Shown one piece after another: positions 7,736-53,733 of a stretch of 54,632 nt of DNA. The first letter of the stretch is position 1; each line of letters opens with the position of its first letter. Source of the stretch: an uncultured virus (IMG/VR IMGVR_UViG_3300042691_044383). Taxonomy: Duplodnaviria > Heunggongvirae > Uroviricota > Caudoviricetes. The notes beneath the pieces are model-generated. The model was not told the DNA's origin and did not search any database. It was given only the letters and a program-made list of their open reading frames with translations. A program made the translations under genes and the position numbers. The DNA lies in IMG/VR virus record IMGVR_UViG_3300042691_044383, positions 62,001 through 116,632 of that record; one strand, given 5' to 3'.

Positions 7736-8526
7736 GTGTTATTGCCTTTCGAATTTTTTATCACGTGGCGGATTGCTGCTTTGATAAACTCGCCGTGCGT
7801 TGCCCACCAAGAAGCCGCATCGGAGTGCATCTTCTTGATCTCTTCGCTTTCCGATGTCCAAGCCAACCAGTTTTCATTAGGTTGTGTTTTGCAACCGATG
7901 GATGTTCGGTCCGCGTAAACGCAGATCGACCAACGATCGATATCCATGCGACAAACCAGGGTGTCGATTCTTGCCCCAGTAAGATTAGCATCGTCAAGGT
8001 CAGCGCCGTTAAGGTTGGCCCCGCGAAGGTCGGCCCCTTCAAGATTGGCCCGGCGAAGGTTGGCCCCGCGAAGGTTGACCCCGCGAAGGTCGGCCCCGTC
8101 AAGGTTGGCTCCGATAAGGTTGGCCTTGTAAAGGTTGGCCCCGCGAAGGTTGGCCCCGGCAAGGTTGGCTCCGATAAGGTTGGCCTTGTAAAGGTTGGCC
8201 CCTTCCAGGTCGGCCCCGATAAGGCTGGCTCCTAAAAGGAAGGCCCTGCGAAGGTTGGCCCCGCGAAGGTTGGCCCCGGCAAGGTTGGCATCGCGAAGGT
8301 CGGCCCCGGCAAGTTTGACCATGGCAAGTTCGGCCCCACCAAGGTTGGCCCCGCGAAGGTTGGCATCGCGAAGGTCGGCCCCGGCAAGTTTGACCATGGC
8401 AAGTTCGGCCCCACCAAGGTTGGCCCCGCGAAGTTCGGCCCTGTGCAGGTTGGCCCTTTTGCCACCTTCATCCTTTAACCACTTCGCGTGCTCAGTTAAA
8501 ATCGTTGCTAGTTCTTCAGGTTTCAT
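7732..8526 (-). CDS. Pentapeptide repeat protein (paralogue)
   Basis: Same N- and C-terminal domains as the neighbouring gene, with more ANLRG/ADLRG repeats. Confidence 0.95.
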   Translation of the reverse strand: MKPEELATILTEHAKWLKDEGGKRANLHRAELRGANLGGAELAMVKLAGADLRDANLRGANLGGAELAMVKLAGADLRDANLAGANLRGANLRRAFLLGASLIGADLEGANLYKANLIGANLAGANLRGANLYKANLIGANLDGADLRGVNLRGANLRRANLEGADLRGANLNGADLDDANLTGARIDTLVCRMDIDRWSICVYADRTSIGCKTQPNENWLAWTSESEEIKKMHSDAASWWATHGEFIKAAIRHVIKNSKGNNT

Positions 8527-8538
8527 GTGTCCCCAGCC

Positions 8539-8919
8539 TTATTTATTTGCGTCCATGAAGACAATGGTAAACAGCACATTCCACGTTGTTCGAGCTGTAA
8601 AAGCTCGAACAACCTCCGTCTCTTCTTCGGTCAGATCCGCCATCCTCTTGTTAAGGATGACAAGCTCGTCGTCCGTCAACTCGCGAATTTTTTTCGCGAG
8701 AACCTTGTCCATTGAACGTCTGAAAACCGGGCCCGGTTCTCCGCGTTGGATGACGAACGCCATCCAAAAGGAATTCTGAAACTCCCGTGTAACTTGTGCT
8801 TCCACCTTCTCCCGATTTTTGGCGGGAAGCTTGCCTTCCTCCCCTTGCATGACCGAAAGGGAAAACAACATCGAAAAAGTGAAAACGATCAAAGCAATTG
8901 TGCGCATTTTTAAATCCAA
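8539..8919 (-). CDS. Hypothetical exported/membrane protein
   Basis: Hydrophobic N-terminus MRTIALIVFTFSMLFSLSV. The start may be ATG 8907. Confidence 0.6.
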   Translation of the reverse strand: MDLKMRTIALIVFTFSMLFSLSVMQGEEGKLPAKNREKVEAQVTREFQNSFWMAFVIQRGEPGPVFRRSMDKVLAKKIRELTDDELVILNKRMADLTEEETEVVRAFTARTTWNVLFTIVFMDANK

Positions 8920-8937
8920 TTTTGGTTGTCAACAGTT

Positions 8938-9091
8938 AAAAAAAAAGCGTAAGCGATCTTGTTAGATCGTTTACGCAAAAGGAGGAGTACCATCAAAGTT
9001 TATTGCTTTGACGGTACTCCTCCTGGAGTTGCAAATAAAAATCAAATCAGAAGGTGTTCGCGTAAGCAACTCGCGAATTTTGATTTGATTT
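8938..9091 (-). terminator. Three consecutive long hairpins, the last followed by T9
   Basis: Stems 9039-9052/9078-9091, 8980-8998/9006-9024 and 8947-8958/8965-8976. The a-run at 8938-8946 gives the U-tail on the minus strand. Confidence 0.7.
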
Positions 9092-9128
9092 CTTTTGAGC
9101 CTTTTAACGTCCTGCCCAGGACTCGAGC

Positions 9129-9605
9129 CTAGTCGCGTACGGTGTAGTTGTAATGAATTTTCCCGTCATCGTTGAGACGGACAATTCGCATCGCCCCGTA
9201 CCATTTGCGAGCCAGGACATCCCGGACACAAGCCGCCATCGGCGCCCAGTAGCCGTGATCGCCCATTTTTGAAAGCAACTTGGAAAGGCTTTCTTCCGTC
9301 TGCCTCGAGAACACATGCAGTACCGCTTGGCGGTACTCTTCCGAAGCGAGCAGCTCGTCACGCAGCTCCTTTGGCACGCTAGCGTGCCATGCCTCCATTA
9401 CACGATGTAACGGAGATTGCGAGTCCCTTGGCTCATCCAAACCGCGCATTACTAGCACGTCGAAATGGTTATGAGCAAACCAATCGGAGTAGTCGGACGG
9501 CAACGGCCATGCGGATCTTGCAAACGCCACAGCTTGCTCAAACTTGGTTTTCCGCTTGACGGGAGTCGCTGCCGGGGTTTGCTTTTTGAACAAAAAAGAA
9601 AACAT
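9129..9605 (-). CDS. Hypothetical protein
   Basis: Start moved to ATG 9605 (MFSFLFKK), preceded by AAGGA. The longer call runs into a terminator. Confidence 0.7.
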   Translation of the reverse strand: MFSFLFKKQTPAATPVKRKTKFEQAVAFARSAWPLPSDYSDWFAHNHFDVLVMRGLDEPRDSQSPLHRVMEAWHASVPKELRDELLASEEYRQAVLHVFSRQTEESLSKLLSKMGDHGYWAPMAACVRDVLARKWYGAMRIVRLNDDGKIHYNYTVRD

Positions 9606-9631
9606 AATTTTATCCTTGTGAATGCAAAAGT

Positions 9632-9671
9632 AAAAAGCCCCACCGCCGCATCCACTGAATGCGGTAGAGCT
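9632..9671 (-). terminator. Rho-independent terminator closing the candidate large ncRNA
   Basis: AGCTCTACCGC...GCGGTGGGGCT followed by TTTTACTTTT. The G-U pairs form only on the minus strand. Confidence 0.75.
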
Positions 9672-10485
9672 TGCGTGGTAAAACACGCGGAATGAATCAT
9701 CGGTTGGTTATCTAGCACCGCCACGTAGAGGCTGATTCATGGTGCCGTATACCGCTTACTCAGTAAAGACTCTCACCAGTCTTTATGCTTGCGGTAATCG
9801 AATCCTGTAACTAGGACCCCTAAAAGAGTGAGCTCTGCATTTTTACCTGTATGCCCAGGCTAGCTTAGGTTGTTAGCCTAAGGGTACGAGCTGTTGCCGC
9901 TTGCTAAGCGATCCAGAACTTCCCCGGATTATTAATGGCTCCTTCGCGGTAGCTTTGCGTATCGTTTTACGTTGGACAAAACGCCAGACTCGCACTGGGT
10001 GCTTTAATCGTTTTTGATCAAAACATCTGCTAGCCTTTTTTTAGTGGAGCTAGTAACCACGTTACCTATGTTTTAACGAGAAGGTATGTTCTCGGAACGT
10101 TCACTGCTTTTTGGCTTCGCCTTGCGTAAAAAGATACAACAAGACGCCAACGAAGAAGCCCACAGAAATTTAGGACTTTTCATCAGAACAGTTTTTCACT
10201 AACTGGGGGATGTCTTTTCAGACTTTTAGTTCAACCCCGAAACCGTGCCACGTGTACTTTTACACGCCACACAGTAATGCTTCACAAGACCCATATAGAG
10301 AAGATCTCGGTGAGGACGACACAAGTGCTAGCCGCCCGCAAATATCGCAAAGACAAAAGACGCTGTTACCCTCGGCTTGATTTTTACATCAAGTGAGTGC
10401 GGTCTTTGCGATACTCGACTTCAGCCAGTGAAAGTACGTTTGCCTTTGTACTTCGACCGACCTGCAAACGATAAGTCGTCTGCAT
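9632..10485 (-). ncRNA. Candidate large structured non-coding RNA (~850 nt)
   Basis: No ORF of 60 aa or more between 9725 and 10519 in an otherwise dense genome. More than ten helices, two H-type pseudoknots, minus-strand G-U pairs and a 3' terminator. Confidence 0.65.
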
Positions 10486-11887: not shown

Positions 11888-13870
11888 TTATCGCCTAATT
11901 TGTGACATCTCGAATTTAGGGTCCCACGGAAAACGCTGACTTGCCCCTCGTCTTCCGCCTTGCTCGCGAGACGGACAGGCAACAAGACTTTTGTTTTTGT
12001 TCCATTGCTTTATACCGTAGCCGGTCTGGTGCAACTGCTCGCCGATTGTAATGTCGCCGCCGTTGTGAAGCAGCCGGCAGTCGGGAATGTCCGCCTGTCG
12101 CATCGTCTGCGTGTGCAGCGCCCAACACCATCCGACCGCGAAATCAATTACGGATCCGTTCGAAACATCCTCGCCGCCAGTTTTCGATCTAAGTGGTTTG
12201 CCTTTATGCCAGGTCGCTCCTTTGAACCAGCTGTCTGGACGGTAGCCGGCGTTCGCGTAAATGCCGAGATCGTGGAACATCATGTTGCCGTAAAGTCTAA
12301 AGCCGTTTTTATGATTTGCAGCAATGGTCGTGCACAGGTCGCTGAGCCAAGCAGGGTTAGAAATCCACGTGTCGTCATCGAACCAGACCATGTACTCGGT
12401 CTTAATCGGGTGCTCTTCGTCGTAAAACATTTGCCGCATTACCGGGTACTTGAAGTCGTTAGCACTGTGCTCGTAGATTTTCGTAGCAGGTGTTGTTTTC
12501 AAGTAATTCAAGGTGGACTTGGGCACTTGATTAGTCGCAACGCGAAGGTCCAGCTTGTCGGCAGGCACCGTTCGAAGTATGCCGTCGATGCAACGCGTCG
12601 CAAGAGACGTGTACGGACCGTAGCACAGAACGAAGATCGTGACCTTTCCGCCAATTGCCGGATCATCTATGCCTTGAATTGTCTTTGCGATTCGTCCCGT
12701 ATGATTCGCCTTGAGCTCCAAGGGGTGCGACATCTGGTGCTGCTTCTGCGGTACCTCGGGCCGTGACGGTTCACGTATAAGCTGCACAGGGGATTCCTTG
12801 TACTCCACCAGCTCAACAACCGGTACTTGAAGACTCTGGCTTACAACGGAAGACTTATCGACCGCCGGAATCGTGCCATCGGAATAGTAAGACATCACAG
12901 CCGAAACCACGTCAGCGGGTAGTATCAAGTCCTGGCAGCCGGCCACGGGATGGGTTTCAACCGGTTTCACGGGATTTTGACAAAGCAAATGTACCTTCCG
13001 GTTCCTGTCGGAAGGATCCAGTGGAACTACCCTGTTTCTCCAGCACCCGTACGTTTCGCAGCACGGTAGCTTGCCCACGGTGTGCAGGTAACGATGCGGC
13101 ACATTGACTGCCGAAGCTTCCGGCCCGAAGGCTTTGTACTCATTCGTGTAGGCTTCGAACCAAGGGTCCTCCCTCCCTCCCGCGTACACCACGCAAGGCT
13201 TGTCGAACGCGGCGGCTATGTGCATTGCACCCGTGATGCCGCATATCACGCCGTCCGCATGCAATATGATGTTCCACAAGTCCCGGACATTATCCGTCTG
13301 CCCGATGAGGTTGAGCGTTCGCTCCAGTGGCGGGTGAACGTGATTGGTTTGTGTTGCACCCACTTGCACACAGCTTATTCCTTCAGCTTTAAGTTTGTCG
13401 ATGACTTCTTGCATGCGGTGAGCGTGCCAGTGTTTTACTGTGGCGTCGAGTTTACCGCCCGATACGACCACCCAGTACCTTCCGGCCAAACGACGTGTCT
13501 TTTCGTCGTCCGACAGATACAAGTCTGCTTTAGGCTTCGTGACGGGAACCCTTATTCCGGTCTTCTCTTCGAAGTTATGGTGGTACCAGGAGAGTATGTG
13601 CCGCTTGTTTCCCTTTTCGTCGATCGCGTGCTGCTTGATTGCTTTTCCCCAGTCCATCGTGACAATTCGTGCTAAGGATCGTTGCGAGGCGGAAAGCTTC
13701 ACAACGTGCGGATTGTTCCACCACACGTTCGTAAAATTTGTAACAACCTCGGTCTCGTATTTTCCAGGGTAGGCCGCGTGCAGATCCCGCACAATGGAAG
13801 TAAAAAGAATCGTATCACCCATGGCGTGCGGGTGACCGTGTTTAAGCACCAACGGTATTTTTTCTGGCAT
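11888..13870 (-). CDS. Two-domain glycosyltransferase (GT9 heptosyltransferase-like plus GT2-like)
   Basis: N-terminal half: MGDTILFTSIVRDLHAAYPG, KHW, NLIGQT, ITGAMHIAAAFDKPCVV (GT9). C-terminal half: VTIFVLCYG...YMVWFDDDT (GT-A). Confidence 0.85.
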   Translation of the reverse strand: MPEKIPLVLKHGHPHAMGDTILFTSIVRDLHAAYPGKYETEVVTNFTNVWWNNPHVVKLSASQRSLARIVTMDWGKAIKQHAIDEKGNKRHILSWYHHNFEEKTGIRVPVTKPKADLYLSDDEKTRRLAGRYWVVVSGGKLDATVKHWHAHRMQEVIDKLKAEGISCVQVGATQTNHVHPPLERTLNLIGQTDNVRDLWNIILHADGVICGITGAMHIAAAFDKPCVVYAGGREDPWFEAYTNEYKAFGPEASAVNVPHRYLHTVGKLPCCETYGCWRNRVVPLDPSDRNRKVHLLCQNPVKPVETHPVAGCQDLILPADVVSAVMSYYSDGTIPAVDKSSVVSQSLQVPVVELVEYKESPVQLIREPSRPEVPQKQHQMSHPLELKANHTGRIAKTIQGIDDPAIGGKVTIFVLCYGPYTSLATRCIDGILRTVPADKLDLRVATNQVPKSTLNYLKTTPATKIYEHSANDFKYPVMRQMFYDEEHPIKTEYMVWFDDDTWISNPAWLSDLCTTIAANHKNGFRLYGNMMFHDLGIYANAGYRPDSWFKGATWHKGKPLRSKTGGEDVSNGSVIDFAVGWCWALHTQTMRQADIPDCRLLHNGGDITIGEQLHQTGYGIKQWNKNKSLVACPSREQGGRRGASQRFPWDPKFEMSQIRR

Positions 13871-25420: not shown

Positions 25421-26014
25421 CTAGCTCAAAGTGGTTTGCCATTCAATTCCGATCTGGCTGGAAGGCAATTTTTGTTGCTGATCCGCCGTGGTGTAATACC
25501 AGCTGCTATAAAGCAAGTCTTGCGTAAAATCCGTGGCGTCAACAAGTGCCACAAGGCTACCACCGAACACGACCGAGTTCGCTGCGGCAGAAAAAGGTTT
25601 CCCGTGCACGCCGACCGAGCCGCTGCTTCTTGCGAAATAGGACATCCGGTTATCCGTAAGACCTTCGCCGTCCGAGCTGAGCTCCGCCGAGATGACCGGA
25701 ATACGCAGATAGTCGCGGTTCGAGCTAAGCGAGAGACCGTTGTAGTAGCTGACATCTCGCGTGCGATCGAAGGTAGGCGGACTTACCGGGTCGCCAGGAT
25801 TGTCCGTGTTTTCAAACTCCAAGTACATGCCGCTAATCCGGTACCGGCTATCTCCGCTCGTCAACAGCTTTGCTGCGATAGTTGCCCACTGGTAAAGAAT
25901 CAAGTTAGGCTTAAAGTCCGTTGTCGGAGCCCACTTAAACGGAGGCAGCGTTAAATCTTCAACCTTGTAAGCTCGAACTCGTCCAGCCACGCCCGTACAA
26001 AACTTGGCAGTCAT
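25421..26014 (-). CDS. Baseplate peripheral protein
   Basis: TAATG overlap with the upstream gene, PNLIL N-terminal motif and a C-terminal IGIEW strand. Assignment relies on gene position. Confidence 0.55.
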   Translation of the reverse strand: MTAKFCTGVAGRVRAYKVEDLTLPPFKWAPTTDFKPNLILYQWATIAAKLLTSGDSRYRISGMYLEFENTDNPGDPVSPPTFDRTRDVSYYNGLSLSSNRDYLRIPVISAELSSDGEGLTDNRMSYFARSSGSVGVHGKPFSAAANSVVFGGSLVALVDATDFTQDLLYSSWYYTTADQQQKLPSSQIGIEWQTTLS

Positions 26015-27573
26015 TAAACGCACCTTCCACTGATTGATTTTATTTTTGACTCTTCAGTTACGTATGCTTCGTATCCAAGCGACTCGGAAACGGTTAAACA
26101 CTGGAAGTTTTCAAAGCTTTCAGTGTACCCTGGCGACTCCGGCGTACCGTAACCTTCCATGATGATAGGGTTGTCGGCATACGCTAAGTCCACCAGCAAG
26201 ATCATCAACGTGTGCGGTGGCATCACCTTTCGAAGCTGCGACACAGGCACAAATTCTAGCCTATTCTGCAGTTTGCTTCCAGGTTTAACTTTCACGATGA
26301 AAACGTTGAACCGGAGCAGGTTGTCTACCAGAAACTTCAACGGGTTGATCTCCGCAGGCAAAGAGTCAGCCGTCGGCTGGCCGACAGGGTTCTCCCGCAC
26401 GTCTAGCAGCATCGCTAATGTTTCGTTCTTAGCTATGCCGTTTGCGTGGACATCCTCCCAAAACTTCGAAACGTCTCGCGGAAAGCCGCCCAAATCCCAG
26501 GTGACCTTGGTATAGCCGTCGACATCAAGTTCTGTTTGTACCGGGACGTTTGCGTTCGAAAAAACGAGGCCGTCGTGATACCCCTTCGTCAGCATACCGG
26601 TGTCCATCGTTAAACTGTCGACGCCGCAATTAACGTCGAATCCCCGGTTAAGCTCAATGATTTCGAACGTGTCAGTGAGCGACTGGCCTGCGTAAACCGT
26701 CTGCCCGACGGAAACGACAGGCGTTGCCGTGGAAGGATATGCATACACGTTTGAGTTCGTTATCACTTTCAAACCTGTTGCGTCGGTGGCAATGGCTTCG
26801 ACAACTTCCGTTGCATCGATCACTAGAGGTATGCCAAAGACAGCGGCCAAAGCTTGTTGCTGCGAACGAGCGCTGGTCCCCTCGTTAAAGCTTTCGAGTA
26901 CAGCGTTCACCAGCGTCTTGTAGCCTGCGCTGGATCGCATAGGCAAATTCAGAGCGTAACCGAACTGGTCGTAAATGTAATTCCAGTCCCACTTAGATCG
27001 ATAAAACCACAAGGTAATTTCAGTGTCAACGATCTCCCCAACCGCGTTCAATATTTCCTTCTTCGGAATGTCCGGGTTGTCGAACGGGTTAGCGACAAAA
27101 ACAACTGTGTTTTCTTCCAGCCAGAAGTCGATGCCGTTAAGCATCTGCACCGTAGGCTGCGTGACCTGTTCAAATACGACGGAGCACTCTACAAGCTCGC
27201 GAGGCTTACTGATCGCGTAATAACGAGAAGTCGGTATTTGTCCGTAGAAAAGTTCAGCTTGGCTTTTGTACTTGTAGGCTGTTCCCGTGAGATAACGCGC
27301 AAGCAAACTTATGTCGGTGTTAAGAGCTGAACGTCTTACCTGCACTGCGTACCAGTCGTCTTGATGATAGACAGGCACGTTTTTTCGTGAAACGCTGTTT
27401 ACTAGCTCAAGGAACTGCGTGTTGACTTGCTGGTATAGCTGCCCGACAACGTTACTGATATCCGAAACCAGGCCGTTACCCTGGTAAAGCGAAGCCCAAA
27501 AGCTACCCAGTACGCTCAGCAGCGAGTCAGGTCTATCGAAGTCATTCTGAGGATACTTGTAAAGTTGCGGCAT
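26014..27573 (-). CDS. Baseplate wedge subunit (putative)
   Basis: LLSVLGSFW N-terminus and LRKVMPPHT C-terminal motif, like P2 gpI/T4 gp7-type wedge proteins. Confidence 0.55.
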   Translation of the reverse strand: MPQLYKYPQNDFDRPDSLLSVLGSFWASLYQGNGLVSDISNVVGQLYQQVNTQFLELVNSVSRKNVPVYHQDDWYAVQVRRSALNTDISLLARYLTGTAYKYKSQAELFYGQIPTSRYYAISKPRELVECSVVFEQVTQPTVQMLNGIDFWLEENTVVFVANPFDNPDIPKKEILNAVGEIVDTEITLWFYRSKWDWNYIYDQFGYALNLPMRSSAGYKTLVNAVLESFNEGTSARSQQQALAAVFGIPLVIDATEVVEAIATDATGLKVITNSNVYAYPSTATPVVSVGQTVYAGQSLTDTFEIIELNRGFDVNCGVDSLTMDTGMLTKGYHDGLVFSNANVPVQTELDVDGYTKVTWDLGGFPRDVSKFWEDVHANGIAKNETLAMLLDVRENPVGQPTADSLPAEINPLKFLVDNLLRFNVFIVKVKPGSKLQNRLEFVPVSQLRKVMPPHTLMILLVDLAYADNPIIMEGYGTPESPGYTESFENFQCLTVSESLGYEAYVTEESKIKSISGRCV

Positions 27574-27895
27574 CGGCTTTTTCTTGGAATAGCTTGTCTA
27601 GAAAGTAATCGATAGCAAGCTTCATTGTAGCCGACAGCAGAACTTGCAGTAATAGCGTTAGAATGACGCCGCCCGTGATGAACTTGTAGGCCTTCTTTTC
27701 AAGTTGAGCGCGATTAGCGTTTGGGTTTTCCTCCCAAGCTTGTTTGACCGCGTCCATTGCCCTGCGAACGTCTGCCCGCTCCTTTTCAATGCGAAATATT
27801 TCCCGGCTACGATTTTTGCCTACGGCTTGCATGTAGGTTAAATCGTCCAGGTTGCGCGAAGCGCAGAATGCCGTCGCCGTCTTTTCCCAATCCAT
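27542..27895 (-). CDS. Small membrane protein
   Basis: C-terminal hydrophobic helix FITGGVILTLLLQVLLSATMKLAI. Confidence 0.65.
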   Translation of the reverse strand: MDWEKTATAFCASRNLDDLTYMQAVGKNRSREIFRIEKERADVRRAMDAVKQAWEENPNANRAQLEKKAYKFITGGVILTLLLQVLLSATMKLAIDYFLDKLFQEKADAATLQVSSE

Positions 27896-27896
27896 A

Positions 27897-28214
27897 CTAA
27901 TCCTCTGCTTTCAAAAGCACGTCGATGGGCGAGTTATCGATTTCGACCTTAAGGCCGCCGCCGACGTTTTTTACACCAGATATCGTCGTCTTTACCATTA
28001 TCGGGCCGACTTTCACTCGCACCTTCACGGGAGGATTGAAGCGAAGGACACCTGCCTGCAAAGTTACTTCCTGCAAGTTGGAAAAGTCCGCCGTACCGCC
28101 GTTGAAATCTACGCACCCTGTTTGCAACAATTGCGACAGGGTGGAATGCAACTTCTCGGGTATGCCGACCGGGTAGTTTAACATTATTGGGGACACGGTT
28201 GCCCTTGCGGGCAT
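27897..28214 (-). CDS. Hypothetical beta-rich protein
   Basis: 105-aa ORF tiling between its neighbours. Confidence 0.65.
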   Translation of the reverse strand: MPARATVSPIMLNYPVGIPEKLHSTLSQLLQTGCVDFNGGTADFSNLQEVTLQAGVLRFNPPVKVRVKVGPIMVKTTISGVKNVGGGLKVEIDNSPIDVLLKAED

Positions 28215-28789
28215 GTGCTGTAGGTACGATTTCTGCGAAAAACTGTCGGGGCTCGGTTTGTTGCGTAGTATTGAGTCACAGGGGCAGCGTTCACGGATCG
28301 AATCTGCGAGCCATAAGCCGAGTAGCCGTTATGCAAATTATCGTGCATGGCTTGCAGTTCGGTCATGGTTTTTCCGTCTACGTTCAAACCGTGAACTTGC
28401 CGAAGGTGATCCGCAAGCTCAACGAGTGTGTAGTTCCAGTCACCTTCTACGTTCCAGTTTGAGCCCGGCATGCGTGTTACGCTCCCGTTTGAAAATGTCG
28501 GAGCGTCAACGCGTACGTTAGCCGCTTGCACAGGCTTTGCAAGCACTGTATTCGCTTGCGGCTCTTTCGCCTTCGCTTGAAGATCGTTGACGGCTTGTTC
28601 GATACGTTCCAGTGTCGAACGGTAACTTTGCAACTCCGACATTGTCTCGCTGTGGGACTGTTGGATGGATTCCGTGACCGCAGCGTTGAAGCGTTCAACG
28701 AGATCGTCTTTCAACGGTTGCGGTGAAGGTGAGCACCCTAGCAAGAACAGTAAAGCGGCGGTAAAAAAACTAGCTACCAATTTCTTCAT
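28184..28789 (-). CDS. Lipoprotein with a coiled coil and His-rich domain
   Basis: GAGGAG before ATG 28789, lipobox MKKLVASFFTAALLFLLG|C, HLRQVHG...MHDNLHN, C-terminal CPQGQPCPQ. Confidence 0.8.
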   Translation of the reverse strand: MKKLVASFFTAALLFLLGCSPSPQPLKDDLVERFNAAVTESIQQSHSETMSELQSYRSTLERIEQAVNDLQAKAKEPQANTVLAKPVQAANVRVDAPTFSNGSVTRMPGSNWNVEGDWNYTLVELADHLRQVHGLNVDGKTMTELQAMHDNLHNGYSAYGSQIRSVNAAPVTQYYATNRAPTVFRRNRTYSTCPQGQPCPQ

Positions 28790-29726
28790 CGTCAAACTCC
28801 TCGTAGTCATCTGCCTCATTCGTCGGTTCTTCGTGACTGTCCGCCTCATGCATGTGGAGTAACTCGAGCAGATGCTCTCGCTCTTCTTCCGCCAGATGCT
28901 CTCGCTCTTCTTCCGCTTCGACTTCGGCGGACTTTTCCGTTATCTTGAAGTATGGCGAATTACTGTACCAATCTACAGGCACAGGCTCTTTGGATCCCAT
29001 AAGGCCGATCGCAGTAGTCCAACTGTCAGCAAGCATGGCCTTCCAAGCGCTCGGCGTGATCAAGTACTGCCCATCCCCGTGCGAATTCATTGCACGAAGG
29101 TCGCCGTCACGGGTGTAGCCTAGGATGCACATGGCGTGACCGCCGCGACCTGGAACGAAACGACGGATCACTCGGTCGGAGGGTATTGTCGAACCCCCGT
29201 AACGAATACCGAAGTTGATGGCACCCCCGCCACCAATGAAGTCAAGTAATTCGTCGTGATCGGGAGAAACCTGCCACGCAGATTTTGCCTTGTACTCAGC
29301 ACCCGCCTTGTAATTAGCTTCACTCAAAATCTCGTTGCGTTCGGCTCGGCCAGGGTATGCCCGAGGGTACCCTGTCAACTTCTCCAGCGGACACCCGGTC
29401 TCTATCGCCAGCTTCGCGCCGCCGGAAACCGTTGACCCGTTGTCAGACCCGAGAAGCCCGTCGATCTTCTGTGTTGCCAGGTACGCAAAGATTCTGGAGA
29501 GCTGCACCTTCTTGCCGGCCACGAAAGCGCAGCGTTCTAGTACCGAGGAAAGCGAGTTGCCTTGGCAACTTCCGATCTGAAACTGATTTTCCTCGCGGTG
29601 CCAGTCGATAGCCACTTCGGAGGGCCGCCGGAAAGACCGCCACACACTACTTTGCATCGGTAAAACAGGCAGCGACTTCAAGTACTTGCGATCTTCTCGC
29701 TCGAAATTGTAACTCGTAAAAATCAT
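28770..29726 (-). CDS. Papain-like (C1) cysteine peptidase
   Basis: VAIDW...NQFQIGSC (oxyanion Gln and catalytic Cys), LSRIFAY, GGHAMCILGY (His), MNSHG (Asn), acidic tail. Confidence 0.85.
   Translation of the reverse strand: MIFTSYNFEREDRKYLKSLPVLPMQSSVWRSFRRPSEVAIDWHREENQFQIGSCQGNSLSSVLERCAFVAGKKVQLSRIFAYLATQKIDGLLGSDNGSTVSGGAKLAIETGCPLEKLTGYPRAYPGRAERNEILSEANYKAGAEYKAKSAWQVSPDHDELLDFIGGGGAINFGIRYGGSTIPSDRVIRRFVPGRGGHAMCILGYTRDGDLRAMNSHGDGQYLITPSAWKAMLADSWTTAIGLMGSKEPVPVDWYSNSPYFKITEKSAEVEAEEEREHLAEEEREHLLELLHMHEADSHEEPTNEADDYEEFDDEEIGS
28869..28916. repeat. Perfect 24-nt tandem duplication
   Basis: cagatgctctcgctcttcttccgc occurs twice, encoding AEEEREHL twice. Confidence 0.9.
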
Positions 29727-30112
29727 TATTTTGCATAGCTCCGTAACAGGGACTCGTGCGACTCTTTGGACCAGCCGCCTTTGTTTTTGAAGTAGTCGGC
29801 CTCGGCTCGGGCCAGTTTTTCGAAAGCAAGCTTGCGAGCAGGTTCTTGCCCGGCGGCTTGAAACTCCCAGACTTCTTGTTCAGTTTGCAGTTCGCCTGTG
29901 CTTAACCTGTCGGCAGCTTTTCCTTGGTGGATTCGCCAAAGACTTTCGTAGGTTTCAAAAGCTTCATTCGCTAAATCCGCATTTAGCGTTTTTCGGTTTG
30001 GCGAAAACCAGCTGGTCGGAACCAATAACAAAACACCCAGCAAACCGCAAACCAAAATGGCCCACGGGAAGCTGGGTGTATTTTCTTCGCCTGCGATCCG
30101 TGCAGTATTCAT
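29726..30112 (-). CDS. Single-pass membrane protein
   Basis: FPWAILVCGLLGVLLLVP, then a helical domain. Start moved to ATG 30112. Confidence 0.7.
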   Translation of the reverse strand: MNTARIAGEENTPSFPWAILVCGLLGVLLLVPTSWFSPNRKTLNADLANEAFETYESLWRIHQGKAADRLSTGELQTEQEVWEFQAAGQEPARKLAFEKLARAEADYFKNKGGWSKESHESLLRSYAK

Positions 30113-30123
30113 CAAGATTGCCC

Positions 30124-30465
30124 TTATTGTTTGTTGTGCGTGGCCAGCTTGGCCTCGGCTATCGCGACTTCTGCCTCGGTGAGCTCGCCCTTTGCGTAGC
30201 TCCACCAAACTTCCGGTCCCGCGTTTGGAGCCGTGTTTTCTATGATCTGCAAGTGTTCCGCAAAACCTACCGGAGGCGGCGCATCGCTGCTGCGACCGGA
30301 GTCCTTTCGTTTGTATTCTTCACGGAACGCGTTCGCATTCACTTTGCGTCTCGGGGCGAAATGCCGGTAACTGAAAAAAGCTGCGGCACCCAAAAGACCG
30401 ACAGCTGCGGCAGCCTTTACAGCGTTGACCAGCGTCTCTAAATCCAGCGTAAGTTCAGCAAGCAT
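30124..30465 (-). CDS. Single-pass membrane protein
   Basis: AAAAVGLLGAAAFFSY followed by a basic patch; AAGGA upstream. Confidence 0.7.
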   Translation of the reverse strand: MLAELTLDLETLVNAVKAAAAVGLLGAAAFFSYRHFAPRRKVNANAFREEYKRKDSGRSSDAPPPVGFAEHLQIIENTAPNAGPEVWWSYAKGELTEAEVAIAEAKLATHNKQ

Positions 30466-30475
30466 AAACTTCCTT

Positions 30476-31411
30476 TCAATTGGTAACGATTAACTTCTGA
30501 CCCGGTTGTAACTTTACCTCGATGGTATTTTTGGTTTGAACAATGTTCGACTTGAGCTTCTCTGGGTTTTGGTTGGGCCCGTAAAGCTTCTGTATTCGAG
30601 AGATGTCATCGACCGATTGTGGTGTTCCGACGAACGGGTTGTAGTACGGTGCCATCAAGGCCTGGTTCCTATCCGAATGGAGTAGCCCAAGCAGATGGCC
30701 GAACTCGTGGCATGCAACGTTAGATAACAGTATACCCCGCTCGCCTTTGTTTGCCACCCAGGTTTCTTCCAAGTCGAAACGCATCAGTAGCTTTTCGTTG
30801 TCGCCTCTTGGCATGTAAGCCCAAGCGAGCGTCCCACCTTTTCCATCAAACTGATGTTGAAGGCCTTTCCCTGTGGTGATGACGATGTCCGTGGTTTCGA
30901 CGTCCTTACTTTCGGAAATGTCCAAACCGCACACGTCGTCCCAAGCCTTGAAGGCTTCCTGGAAAATGCGGCGTTGCTCGGATTTAGGTATTTTGCCTCC
31001 GACGTAGTCTGCAACAAAGTAAGTCAAACCTGTTTTGTTCCATCGATCACGTCTTTCAGCTGCAACTTCGGCAGCACGCAAGAATTCTACGTGCTTTCCG
31101 TTGGATTTGTCCAACTTGTCCGGGCAACCGCAGCGAGGAACCTGCATGGCGCGAAGTGTCTCCTCGGTGAGCATTCCGTCTGCTTTTATGCCAAAATATC
31201 GTTGAAAAACCTTAATTCCAGCGTGAATATCGTCCATACTCACGCTTTTCAGCAGTTCGACGGTCAAATAGCCGAAAAAAACCAAGTAATCGGTGGCAAA
31301 CGTGATAGCTTGCTTGTTTTGGCGCGTTTTTGACGTCGCCATGTCGGATTTCGTTAAAATTCTGACGACTTCCGACTTACCACTGACTTTCTTTGGCATT
31401 TTAGGTTGCAA
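30476..31411 (-). CDS. Matrixin (M10A) MMP-like zinc metallopeptidase with prodomain
   Basis: PG-binding-like helices (FQRYFGIKADG), cysteine switch PRCGCPD, FDGKGGTLAWAY, HEFGHLLGLLH, Met-turn ALMAPYY. Confidence 0.92.
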   Translation of the reverse strand: MQPKMPKKVSGKSEVVRILTKSDMATSKTRQNKQAITFATDYLVFFGYLTVELLKSVSMDDIHAGIKVFQRYFGIKADGMLTEETLRAMQVPRCGCPDKLDKSNGKHVEFLRAAEVAAERRDRWNKTGLTYFVADYVGGKIPKSEQRRIFQEAFKAWDDVCGLDISESKDVETTDIVITTGKGLQHQFDGKGGTLAWAYMPRGDNEKLLMRFDLEETWVANKGERGILLSNVACHEFGHLLGLLHSDRNQALMAPYYNPFVGTPQSVDDISRIQKLYGPNQNPEKLKSNIVQTKNTIEVKLQPGQKLIVTN

Positions 31412-33068
31412 CCGGTATTGAGGAGATTACGTTCAAGTTTACGTCTATCGCTTCGGCAAAAAACTGAACTGTCTTGGAGGTTACCATTTTTCCAGGAAGT
31501 TCTGGTATTATCAAGGCGTCATCGCTGCGTAAATACTTGATGGTGCCGTCCGGCATGCGAATCCGACCCAAAAGATCCAGTTCCGTGACGTTCAATCGAC
31601 CTTGCAGGTAGTTGTGCACGGTATCCACGATCAAAGAACCAGGTAACACGCCTTGGAAGTCGACGGAGTTAATCGCCGTCACAATGGCGGACCGAATAGG
31701 CTCTAGCGACGGAGAAACATCGTCAGCAGCCTTGTTTATCGTAAGAGTCACGCTGACAAAGCACGGGACAGGGGCTTTGATCAAGGCATCGGCGCCGTAG
31801 TGCCGGATATCTCGGCTGGAAACAAGATCCTGCAGTTCACGGACATGTGGCGTGCCCGTTATCTCGTAAACATACTCTGCGGTCTGACCGACGGCTAAAT
31901 CTGCAACCGATGTGACCGTATCTGTGAAAAGGATAATTGCGGACTGGAAAGCGGAATATGCGCTCTCCTCTGCTGTTGCAATGTCCGGGGAGAAACCGCT
32001 TGCAGGTAACGCGGTGTAACGCGTGTCCGATACGATACCGAAGCCTGACACGACAGCAGAGTCGGTTGCCTTGCGTATCTTGTCCACCTCGTAAAACCCG
32101 GGAAGAGTTGTCGCCGGAACAGCAAACTGCCACTCACTTGTTCCTGTAAGCGTTGATACCGACATGCAGGTGGCCACGACTGCAACCGTTTTTCGTTGCA
32201 ACGCAGATTGCCCGCGTATGTACCAGTCTACCCTACCGCCGGTAAGCGTCGGGAAGATGGTGTGTTTGTCCCGCAGCATTTCGGGATCGCCACAACCGAC
32301 GATGGATTGATTTGTGACCGACTCGAACTGCGGCAGACTTCGCAAGTAGGCGCGCATGTTCGTGCGGTTCGAGAGCGTTTTTGCCGCGACACCCAGCTGC
32401 AACTCGTTAATAAGCTCTTCGTTTGTCTCGGTGTTGGTTCCGTCCTCGAAAGAAGACGTGGCATAGCTTGTGACGTAGTTAACGACCGCGCGGTTGGGGA
32501 CTATTAGGTCGCCTGCATTCAGCTTCCTGTCGGCACCGATATCCACGGCTTCTACCTCGATCGTGAAAGCGTAGTTGCCGTTGCTAAGTGGAACCAGCAG
32601 CCGGTCGTTGCTCCCCAGTATTTGGGCAGCCGATATTCTTCCGATAAAAGTCGCCGTGGCCAAGTATTGGAAGCCGTTAGCTTCAAACACGCTGTTTTGC
32701 GGTATCGTTAACGGTCGAAGTGCTGAAAGTTCGATCGTGACCGGCCCGCTTGCCTTGGTGCCGGTCTTTCGCACAATACCCCAGTTGGAAAGCACTTCGC
32801 TGACCACAGTTTCGTCAGCGAGCGTCGGATCCTCTTGAATGCGTTGTAGACTTCTTGCAGACTGGTACCGCTCCAAGTTTACGCGAGCGGCAGTACCCAA
32901 AACTGACTGCAAGTAAGCAATGGTGTCGCGGAAAGCTCCTCGGCGTAAATCCAACGTCGGATTCAACGCTTGCAGCTGCGCAATAGTCCGCAGCAGCGTC
33001 TGTTGCACATCGGCTGCATCCAATTGCGAAAGATCGGAGATTTCAAAGTCGGAATAGGTTAGAGTCAT
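31401..33068 (-). CDS. Baseplate J-like wedge protein (T4 gp6-like)
   Basis: RKTGTKASGPVT, IEVEAVDIG, GTNTETNEEL and GRVDWYI motifs. Follows a gp25-like gene. Confidence 0.85.
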   Translation of the reverse strand: MTLTYSDFEISDLSQLDAADVQQTLLRTIAQLQALNPTLDLRRGAFRDTIAYLQSVLGTAARVNLERYQSARSLQRIQEDPTLADETVVSEVLSNWGIVRKTGTKASGPVTIELSALRPLTIPQNSVFEANGFQYLATATFIGRISAAQILGSNDRLLVPLSNGNYAFTIEVEAVDIGADRKLNAGDLIVPNRAVVNYVTSYATSSFEDGTNTETNEELINELQLGVAAKTLSNRTNMRAYLRSLPQFESVTNQSIVGCGDPEMLRDKHTIFPTLTGGRVDWYIRGQSALQRKTVAVVATCMSVSTLTGTSEWQFAVPATTLPGFYEVDKIRKATDSAVVSGFGIVSDTRYTALPASGFSPDIATAEESAYSAFQSAIILFTDTVTSVADLAVGQTAEYVYEITGTPHVRELQDLVSSRDIRHYGADALIKAPVPCFVSVTLTINKAADDVSPSLEPIRSAIVTAINSVDFQGVLPGSLIVDTVHNYLQGRLNVTELDLLGRIRMPDGTIKYLRSDDALIIPELPGKMVTSKTVQFFAEAIDVNLNVISSIPVAT

Positions 33069-34021: not shown

Positions 34022-34756
34022 TTACGAGATAAAAGGTGAAAGAGCTTGTTCTTGGTCTAAAAGACGTTGGATTTTTTCTTTCCGCTGCGTAATAGCCGCT
34101 GGCGTTCGGTTCAGCGCTTTTGCGATCTCTAGGTTGGAAAACTTACGCCTGTTATTCATACCGAGAGTCATTTCTAAAATTTGCTGGTCAATCGGATCTA
34201 AATCTTGATGCACCACCTGTAACCAGAGATCCGAGGCACCGGTGTCGCCAGGAAGCCTGCTGGCCATGCTTTCAAAATTTGATTCCGGACTTTCGGCTTG
34301 ACCCGTGCTGAATCCCGGCTGGTACTTCCTTATCTTGGCGATACGCGGAATCGAAACCCGCATGAAATCGGAAAGCTCTGCATCCGTTGGTTCTCGCCCC
34401 AGCTCATCGGCAAGCTCTTGCGTAGCCGACCGAAGCTTGTGGTTTTCAAGCACAATACGCTCGGGAGCGTTGACAATCTGGTTTTGTTGACGAGATATCC
34501 GCCTGAGTCCCTGCATATTTGTAACAATGTGCGACCGCAGCCTAGACCTTTTAGGATCGTACTTGTTCGCAGCGTCTAAGGCCAATAACCTTGCGCGGCT
34601 TCGCAGCAAAGGGCTGTCGTCACCGTAAGCTTGAAGGCCCTGGTTAATGACAGGGTCGATCGCTTTCAAAAAGGCGGCATTACCGGTTGGCGTCTTATCG
34701 GCCTGCCACGTCTGAAAGGCCGGGCGAAATTCGTCTTCTAAATAATCGTTCATCAT
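34022..34756 (-). CDS. Phage-encoded sigma-70 family factor (FliA/SigF-like)
   Basis: Region 2 ALDAANKYDPKR, region 3 LADELGREPTDAELS, region 4 HTH SNLEIAKALNRTPAAITQR. Confidence 0.88.
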   Translation of the reverse strand: MMNDYLEDEFRPAFQTWQADKTPTGNAAFLKAIDPVINQGLQAYGDDSPLLRSRARLLALDAANKYDPKRSRLRSHIVTNMQGLRRISRQQNQIVNAPERIVLENHKLRSATQELADELGREPTDAELSDFMRVSIPRIAKIRKYQPGFSTGQAESPESNFESMASRLPGDTGASDLWLQVVHQDLDPIDQQILEMTLGMNNRRKFSNLEIAKALNRTPAAITQRKEKIQRLLDQEQALSPFIS

Positions 34757-52644: not shown

Positions 52645-53733
52645 CTACGCGTCGTCGAGCTTGTACCAGCCTTCCTTGCCCGTGTAGACGTTCATCACGT
52701 CTTTAAAATACTTGTTGTACCTTGGCGCAATCTTTTCCAAAGAGAACTGTTCACCGAACTTCCTGCAATTTTCAGGTTTGATCCGATCGATGTTGCGAAC
52801 AGCGTCGACAAAGTCGGCAAAAGTTCTGCAGCGATAGCCCGTTACGCCGTGCAGATTGTTCTCCGTAAACGCACCCCAGTCCGTGGTAATCGTAGGAGTA
52901 CCGGATAGCAAATTTTCGATCTGAACCCCGCCAAAGGGCTCGATGTACTGACTTGCCACAAAGCTGGCTTTCGCGTCTCGCATTAGCTTTTTGCGGGTCT
53001 CGGAATCAGCGTATCCAACGTATTCGACCGAAGCTGGAAGCTCGAAAGACGGATCCTTTTGCCCTGCAATCACAAGTTTAATGCCGAGCTTCTGGGCAAC
53101 TTGAATTGCAATGTGTACGCCTTTGCCCTCGTAAACGCGACCGAGGTACAAAAAGTAATCCTGCTTTTTGTCGCTGTATTCGAAATCATTTAAGTCGAAA
53201 TAGTTCGGGATCACTACCTCGTACCAATCTTGCTTGCAATTGCGAACGCCCGCCATGCCGCAGTAAGCATGGTAAATGGCATAAGACTCGAAAATTTTCC
53301 AACGCGCCCAGTGTCCATCCGCGTAACCTATACCAGGTTCCACGCAGATAAGGTCGGAGTGTGCGTCGCAGACCGGGCGTACGCCAGCTCCCCAGAACGG
53401 CAGGATGAAGTCCAGCGGCTTTTTACGTTTAGCTATTTCTGTGATCGCGTTGCGATAGAACGTTTGGTAAGCGTGATCTTCCGTGTTGAACTTGAAAAAG
53501 TTTTTACGCCAATCGTAGCTTCCGTACGCAATTTCCAGGTCTTCGTTTGTCGTAACCGTTACATGCTCGTCGCACGCAAGATTAGAATCCGCGTGGCCGT
53601 AATGAATAATGTGGTGCCCGTGCGGTCGCATCATTTCAGCGAACTTTACAACTTTTTGCGTGTATGCGCAAGCAACGTAATCGCGGTTAGAAACGGTATG
53701 CGGCAATCCTAGAACGTGAAATCTGAACGGCAT
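52645..53733 (-). CDS. GT4 (GT-B) glycosyltransferase
   Basis: [12 protein letters not shown] and EPFGGVQIE (EX7E) [24 protein letters not shown]. Confidence 0.92.

Follow-up and report, generated by a model that had tools for sequence, protein, structure and literature searches.

We analysed a 54,632-nucleotide stretch of an uncultured tailed virus (IMG/VR record IMGVR_UViG_3300042691_044383, positions 62,001 to 116,632; hereafter the window) and, within its baseplate region, a block of seven genes that encodes two predicted proteases and a set of membrane or exported partners. The parent record is 116,632 bp long and matches, at 99.8-100% identity, a complete phage genome of 204,794 bp with terminal repeats (G001; three-digit G and L numbers are our handles for compared records and loci). 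The phage encodes tail sheath and baseplate genes, as identified by PHROG matches, and seven minus-strand open reading frames (ORFs), G1 to G7, fill the interval between its baseplate J gene and the gene at 26014..27573, with spacings of -32 to +11 bp.

31401..33068, minus strand: baseplate J-like wedge protein, the upstream flank (Pfam Baseplate_J, E 1.8e-9; phrog_6 baseplate wedge, E 3.1e-14).
30476..31399, minus strand: G1, pro-matrix metalloproteinase (pro-MMP) of the M10 matrixin type, 307 amino acids (aa), without signal peptide (Pfam, alignment).
30124..30465, minus strand: G2, single-transmembrane (TM) protein with a conserved C-terminal domain of ~55 aa (alignment, charge count).
29726..30112, minus strand: G3, N-terminal anchor, linker and three-helix domain (alignment, model).
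28770..29726, minus strand: G4, xylellain-type papain (C1A) protease (profile search, alignment).
28184..28789, minus strand: G5, exported protein with lipobox, helical stretch, His-motif domain and C-terminal CPQGQPC (alignment, motif scan).
27897..28184, minus strand: G6, 95-aa protein of helix and beta sheet (model, predicted local distance difference test (pLDDT) 91).
27542..27895, minus strand: G7, helical protein with a C-terminal hydrophobic or amphipathic helix (alignment, hydropathy).
26014..27573, minus strand: downstream structural gene, probable second wedge protein, directly following J where this interval is empty.

We regard G1-G7 as real genes because all seven are intact, evolve with non-synonymous to synonymous rate ratios (dN/dS) of 0.03-0.20 against one close relative, and are syntenic in nine of 43 baseplate-J loci, our own record included. 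An earlier note on this DNA had described seven tightly packed genes beyond baseplate J and called for a check of their conservation across phages; both the packing and the conservation hold, G2-G7 recurring also in the siphovirus G007. Of the two flanks that it named, J is secured by Pfam and PHROG, whereas the gene at 26014..27573 has no family match of its own in either, and we take it to be a wedge gene from its position and synteny. Alignments place the likely starts at 31399 (G1), 30112 (G3), 28789 (G5) and 28184 (G6). Hydrophobic segments occur in four of the seven ORFs, compared with 28 of 258 same-strand genome ORFs of at least 60 aa (p=0.003, in a comparison chosen post hoc). Guanine-plus-cytosine content is flat over the block (0.49-0.54) and therefore gives no sign of recent transfer, and a promoter and terminator scan found 8 and 9 sites against 4.5 and 8.0 in shuffled sequence, nothing usable.

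G4 is the protease of central interest. Xylellain (PDB 3OIS) matches it at E 2.3e-7 as a single sequence and at E 1.2e-23 as a profile over positions 44-224, actinidin also matches the profile (E 0.003), and the other PDB profile matches are C1 peptidases plus chance matches to designed repeats and a reductase. The catalytic set is intact and in papain order (Q48, C54, H197, N214), so that G4 combines the catalytic Gln/Cys/His/Asn with profile similarity to solved C1A structures, as expected of the papain-like protease recognized in the earlier note. Pfam Peptidase_C1 does not match G4 itself, and a PF00112 search over five relatives returned nothing, the profile being insensitive to the G4 clade, in which NSH replaces NSW. 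G4 has no signal peptide, and in the 29 listed C1A loci the sequence ahead of the catalytic cysteine contains no hydrophobic stretch (mean hydropathy at most 1.83). Its N-terminal segment of ~45 aa is possibly a pro-region, by analogy with a pro-region in xylellain. The tail is acidic and strain-specific, with a duplicated 8-residue stretch (window 28770-28931) that is absent from L004, L005, L015, L016 and L048, and the gene overlaps the start of G5 by 20 bp. A complex prediction of G4 with the G3 domain gave a score of 0.06 (mark 0.32), which speaks neither for nor against an interaction.

G1 matches Peptidase_M10 (E 1.3e-33) and PG_binding_1 (E 1.3e-6) in Pfam, and human pro-MMPs align to it over prodomain and catalytic domain (best E 6e-28), which upholds the MMP-like protease of the earlier note. 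It has a cysteine switch (PRCGCPD, 88-94), a zinc motif (HEFGHLLGLLH, 231-241) and a Met-turn (M249 in ALMAP); with HExxHxxGxxH, the Met-turn and a prodomain bearing a PRCGxPD-type switch, it has the M10 zymogen features that we tested and is predicted to be a latent zinc-dependent protease. Among the 120 homologues listed of 344 found, HExxHxxGxxH is kept in all, a second switch cysteine (RCGC) occurs in 110 and PRCGCPD in 99, and a hydrophobic N-terminus or signal in none. The prodomain has a PGBD-like fold. We rejected the PG_binding_1 match as evidence of peptidoglycan binding: what it detects is the prodomain of the MMP, where the alignment to human pro-MMPs runs through the cysteine switch, and all 14 PG_binding_1 matches in 30 records fall, by their coordinates, within MMP genes.

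The remaining five genes encode membrane or exported partners. G2, G3 and G7 have one hydrophobic segment each, in agreement with the two single-TM proteins and the C-terminal-TM protein noted before. G2, which has no Pfam or PHROG match, is acidic before its TM and basic after it, from which we infer an N-out/C-in topology; it is a candidate holin or holin-regulator. G3 is modelled as a compact helical domain (pLDDT 83) behind a linker that is Pro-rich in most homologues; its fold has no significant PDB match (best Z 7.2, root-mean-square deviation (rmsd) 2.8, 72 aligned, generic helices), which does not show it to be new, and an Atlas search gave one uninformative match at 0.75. G5 carries the lipobox LLGC in this phage, as the earlier claim of a coiled-coil lipoprotein required, but the coiled coil is modest (8 of 16 hydrophobic in the best heptad register). 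Four close orthologues lack the lipobox (L004, L005, L016, L048), and the G5 slot in relatives holds signal-anchored or thioredoxin-bearing proteins: among 20 G5-slot proteins, the export signal is kept, while a plausible lipobox is present in six (two more pattern matches, within or before a TM, were discounted), CxxC in nine and the His motif in eight. The spanin reading of this lipoprotein is accordingly not supported, the slot carrying thioredoxin or His-motif cargo. G6, described before as a small beta protein, has the sheet but also one helix; its 58 library matches are in part spurious long repeats, many distant homologues have an N-terminal TM anchor, and its fold has no significant PDB match (Foldseek best E 0.18; VIA best Z 4.0, rmsd 4.2, 68 aligned), newness again not being shown by this. 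G7 is a candidate holin or outer-membrane disruptor. Genes resembling it follow holin-like genes in small phages, yet do not match the G7 profile.

The interval between J and the presumed wedge gene has varied contents. Besides the nine loci with the full block (one with distant analogues for G3-G5), three of the 43 hold a different C1-like trio, five an MMP with exported heme proteins and one an MMP running to the contig end; 18 hold nothing or almost nothing, and seven show no wedge gene. Because the contents vary and are so often missing, the place inside the baseplate operon, which the earlier note had pointed out, is an insertion site and not proof of a virion role.

The cassette consists of two units, namely G1, which is tied to baseplate J within one jumbo-phage clade, and a mobile module, G2-G7. 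The latter occurs in the same order and without G1 among head-tail genes of the 66-kb siphovirus G007. The C1A module is found without the MMP in G007, G010, G002 and G025, and the complete genome G027 has an MMP with exported heme proteins and no detected C1A; since each occurs without the other, the two are separable and their pairing marks one clade, so the two protease classes are not the fixed pair first supposed. Of 80 metagenome loci we kept the 47 best and set aside the 33 most distant. In these 47, many of them on short contigs, the gene found most regularly beside G4-clade genes is G3 (40 loci), followed by G2 (19), G5 (12) and G6, G7 and G1 (11 each). Three empty-slot relatives have comparable genes at other places. 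Downstream of the capsid gene of G002 lie a gene for an exported thioredoxin-like protein, a distant C1A, an amphipathic gene and two genes that look like holins; G030 combines an MMP and a C1A with TM genes and an exported trypsin; and G003 has an MMP, an exported trypsin and a TM gene. In other small phages a two-TM gene and an amphipathic gene come first, followed by G3, the C1A, a TM-plus-coiled-coil gene and then the tail fibres; some C1A genes lie after RusA or HNH genes or ahead of tail-fibre genes. Protein clusters number 353 for G4 and 344 for G1, and neither has a match among 50,697 GenBank phage records. Genome-collection searches recovered the cassette on one binned phage-like contig only, the other C1A matches being distant Chloroflexus and Bacteroides proteins.

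Two further gene groups were seen during these comparisons. A second mobile module lies beside the MMP (L021:9655-12942, L022:9620-12668, L023, L047, L167:10723-12672) and comprises an exported CxxCH protein of 450-700 aa that belongs to no named family, a Planctomycete cytochrome C protein and an exported protein of low complexity; the unrelated phage G033 (47 kb) has it too, between membrane genes. G003 (L066:5854-9969) and G029 (L165:5166-9042) have, ahead of their RNA polymerase gene, a His/Cys-motif gene, an exported trypsin-like protease and two to three short Ala/Gln-rich genes. The motifs suggest a permuted NlpC/P60-like enzyme, a label read from the motifs and not from a family match, and the Ala/Gln-rich genes, of which the one scanned had no Pfam match, presumably resemble RebB R-body proteins.

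Holins neighbour the module in other phages, and wall hydrolases are missing from what we searched. In G007 the module directly follows a Phage_holin_10 gene (Pfam, E 1.3e-13), the small phage L092 has near its C1A a two-TM gene that matches the phrog_9987 holin (E 1.9e-4), and G002 has a phrog_20 holin near its own (E 0.0026); holin-like profiles occur in six of the 47 metagenome loci. Pfam scans of G001 (55, 105 and 110 ORFs) took in, each counted once, about 267 of the 300 ORFs called, the short ones being left out, and at this sensitivity returned no wall hydrolase, holin or spanin family, so that the lack of a muramidase or amidase reported for the window extends to the complete genome, and the full-genome search for a canonical endolysin came back empty. 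No wall hydrolase or spanin family, and no holin besides the one that came from a separate scan, was detected among 86 scanned ORFs of G007, and no wall hydrolase in 100 scanned of 106 dereplicated cassette neighbours. Six-frame searches, in which only nine records are at least 90% complete, found Amidase_2 in 0 of 30 records, Amidase_3, SLT and M15_4 each in 0 of 29, and Phage_lysozyme in one of 30, the distant-C1A phage G034 added as a positive control. GH25 was absent from five records with working controls, and GH19 and GH108 were absent from five each with controls silent too; for CHAP, NlpC/P60 and M23 the search extended to G001 and G007 only, through their Pfam scans.

Two side observations belong here. 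In G034 (L102:5863-8532) the distant C1A is found two genes upstream of an ordinary lysozyme whose neighbours resemble holin and spanin genes, and C1A genes can thus accompany a canonical cassette. Outside the window, near the terminase gene of G001, are two small two-TM genes (L064:17319-17811), one with a weak DUF1360 match (E 0.003), which have look-alikes in G002, G004 and G027 and are a possible holin for this phage group.

We interpret G2-G7 as probably a mobile late lysis module that follows holin/endolysin logic with the C1A protease as its lytic enzyme. We favour this because the lack of a signal in the hydrolases, together with their holin neighbours and anchored partners, agrees with a protease whose release is triggered by a holin, and it is supported by the analogous protease-plus-membrane blocks that the empty-slot relatives G002, G003 and G030 carry elsewhere. 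The block would be transcribed late together with the tail genes; G4 would build up in the cytoplasm, possibly in latent form, while G3, G5 and, in many relatives, G6 would be placed in or beyond the inner membrane. A holin function, for which G007 has its Pfam holin and this phage has G2 or G7 as candidates, would then free G4, which with its anchored partners would cut the load-bearing layer of a planctomycete envelope, and G7 and G5 may help breach the outer membrane. As the target of G4, wall proteins or protein-peptidoglycan tethers seem somewhat more likely than the peptidoglycan stem peptide. G1 would be a separate J-linked zymogen, probably released like G4, that acts as an accessory or alternative envelope protease, and, more speculatively, its extra switch cysteine could tie activation to oxidation outside the cytoplasm.

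Several observations weigh against a lysis function. The non-canonical lysis system first proposed is backed by a conserved block, signal-less enzymes, holin neighbours elsewhere and the missing canonical endolysin, but no holin family was found in this phage (Pfam of ~267 G001 ORFs; PHROG): PF23987 is absent from G001 and G021-G023, and the neighbour holins of other phages have no match in G001. G027 has no holin-like gene beside its MMP. The absence of an endolysin is not specific, because G004 (92% complete) and G005 (88%) show neither the cassette nor a known endolysin. Most ORFs of the genome belong to no family, and one other zinc peptidase gene elsewhere in it (Peptidase_Mx, E 1e-6; G001 L059:3808-4518, no TM flagged) is an unassigned alternative hydrolase. 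C1A and M10 are protein-cutting families, and the papain-fold wall hydrolases named in the available part of PMC10318531 belong to the NlpC/P60, CHAP and amidase families. Lysozyme acts on planctomycete sacculi, according to the accessible portion of PMC4432640, so a muramidase could serve. Finally, related contigs were binned with Nanopelagicales, Acholeplasmataceae and Bacteroidales.

The block could instead be host-modifying cargo that remodels the envelope or surface of the infected cell, through superinfection exclusion, receptor removal or release from biofilm matrix, with the true lysis genes unrecognised. The slot contents are interchangeable and exported, and include c-type cytochromes and thioredoxins without a known lysis role; G004 and G005 show neither cassette nor known endolysin; and a phage-derived metzincin with a lipoprotein in Listeria only sensitises cells to lysins, as far as the available text of PMC8235301 describes it. 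We nevertheless consider this unlikely, given that holins adjoin the module in unrelated phages, that both proteases lack export signals and would need holin-like release to reach the envelope, and that all contexts seen place the genes in a late operon.

It is a little less likely again that the proteases, G1 above all, are virion enzymes, bound to the baseplate for entry or maturing tail proteins, although for G1 taken alone this deserves rather more credence while still being doubtful. G1 directly follows J in 15 of the 43 J loci and in nine of the 11 metagenome loci that have it (the other two end before J), and the collagen-like tail fibres of the genome are possible MMP substrates. However, 18 of the 43 loci have J and the wedge gene side by side or almost so, the MMP lies away from baseplate genes and among membrane genes in G003, G030 and the unrelated G033, G2-G7 are present in a siphovirus, and the products of four of the seven genes are membrane proteins or exported. 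A canonical cassette in disguise, with G1 as a peptidoglycan-binding endolysin and G3 and G5 as spanins, would account for the above-cut-off PG_binding_1 match and for a TM gene and a lipoprotein within one block, but is very improbable with that match being an MMP prodomain, the lipobox lost from G5 orthologues and G3 a compact helical domain.

The host is, on indirect evidence, quite likely a member of the Planctomycetota. One full cassette was recovered in a Gemmataceae bin, slot genes of relatives contain Planctomycete cytochrome C domains (E 1.4e-6 and 9e-4), and viruses and Planctomycetota lead the Atlas neighbours of the heme proteins, with Myxococcota and Pseudomonadota also present. 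Planctomycete walls are rich in protein, P. limnophila can do without most of its peptidoglycan genes, and it is debated whether peptidoglycan or protein is the load-bearing layer of these envelopes (PMC12673574, in the part available). We entertain, with considerable doubt, a wider proposal that planctomycete phages swapped peptidoglycan hydrolases for a set of interchangeable proteases (C1A, pro-MMP, trypsin-like), released by holins and gated by redox, whose target would be a cysteine-rich protein wall that bears the load. The gating is a hypothesis and no result of the analysis: it is suggested by the RCGC switch and by the company that the enzymes keep, exported thioredoxins with the C1A (CxxC in 9 of 20 G5-slot proteins) and c-type cytochromes with the double-cysteine-switch MMP. 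If true, the host would be lysed through digestion of its protein wall, and the enzymes would show what keeps a planctomycete cell together, since a phage lytic enzyme must cut the load-bearing layer and the substrate of purified G4 or G1 would identify it. Confirmation would widen the range of lytic enzymes to C1A and MMP-type proteases and would explain the endolysin-free look of these abundant uncultured phages. We found no description of this module, or of protease-based lysis in planctomycete phages, in the literature searched, which left most subscription journals uncovered.

Elsewhere in the phage, a sigma-70-like gene lies within the baseplate operon (window 34022-34756) and is kept there in relatives. 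G001 also encodes RNA polymerase beta and beta-prime (L060:1725-6164 and 7843-9807), the start of beta-prime being fused to beta, and an RNA polymerase alpha-CTD gene (L065:10792-11139). Genes for glycosyl-, sulfo- and methyltransferases are numerous (window 11888-13870 and 52645-53733; G001 L056, L059 and L061) and occur with two collagen-like fibre genes, which suggests glycosylated virion or surface structures. A weak Erv1/Alr match in G001 (E 5e-4, below cut-off) was dropped as it has no CxxC.

As a phage, G001 resembles the RNA-polymerase-encoding Caudovirales termed mReC, as a tailed phage of ~200 kb with beta and beta-prime genes (RNA_pol_Rpb2_6 E 7.6e-44, Rpb1_2 E 4.4e-20, Rpb1_5 E 4e-19), although its terminase is PF05876 where the mReC paper has PF03237; the likeness comes from gene content and not from a tree, and the available text of that paper yielded nothing on lysis, peptidases or planctomycetes (PMC7481178). 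The Listeria Mtz/Tim pair, in the available description, is likewise a phage-derived metzincin plus a lipoprotein that raises phage-mediated lysis, but Mtz is a secreted protein that works in a Gram-positive host and does no more than sensitise it, and we liken the two by description and not by homology (PMC8235301). Papain-fold phage wall hydrolases (CHAP, NlpC/P60 and Amidase_5, with archaeal PeiW/PeiP) share with G4 the use of Cys-His catalysis to open walls, as seen in part of PMC10318531, but are different families, none of which G4 matches in Pfam.

G4 is closest to the short bacterial C1A proteases of the xylellain type, with which it shares the profile match and the catalytic Gln/Cys/His/Asn, differing in NSH for their NSW. 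Such proteases have been acquired by Myoviridae and Siphoviridae; the available text of PMC10380794 assigns the phage copies no function or gene context, whereas G4 is fixed in a membrane-gene module. G1 resembles animal minimal pro-MMPs (MMP-7; the pro and catalytic parts of MMP-1, -3, -9 and -10) in prodomain, switch, HExxHxxGxxH and Met-turn, but is phage-encoded, lacks a signal peptide and has PRCGCPD, with the second cysteine in most listed homologues.

In phage lambda, S-R-Rz/Rz1 forms a holin-endolysin-spanin cassette, and in P2 the lysis genes sit among tail genes. The module is like these in being a late-operon block of small membrane genes around a signal-less hydrolase, headed in G007 by a Pfam holin. 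It differs in having a C1A protease, here with an M10 zymogen, in place of a muramidase, amidase or M15 peptidase, in its extra anchored G3, G5 and G6, and in having no spanin pair and no recognisable holin in this phage. A conserved outer-membrane lipoprotein, as in two-component spanins, is not what the G5 slot holds (6 of 20 proteins); where an i-spanin has a long periplasmic coiled coil, G3 has a short three-helix domain, and TM-plus-coiled-coil genes flank the module in other phages but not here. Because the defining enzyme, a known peptidoglycan hydrolase, was searched for and not found in the cassette or the ~267 G001 ORFs, we do not count the module as a holin-endolysin cassette, though it appears similar to one in its working.

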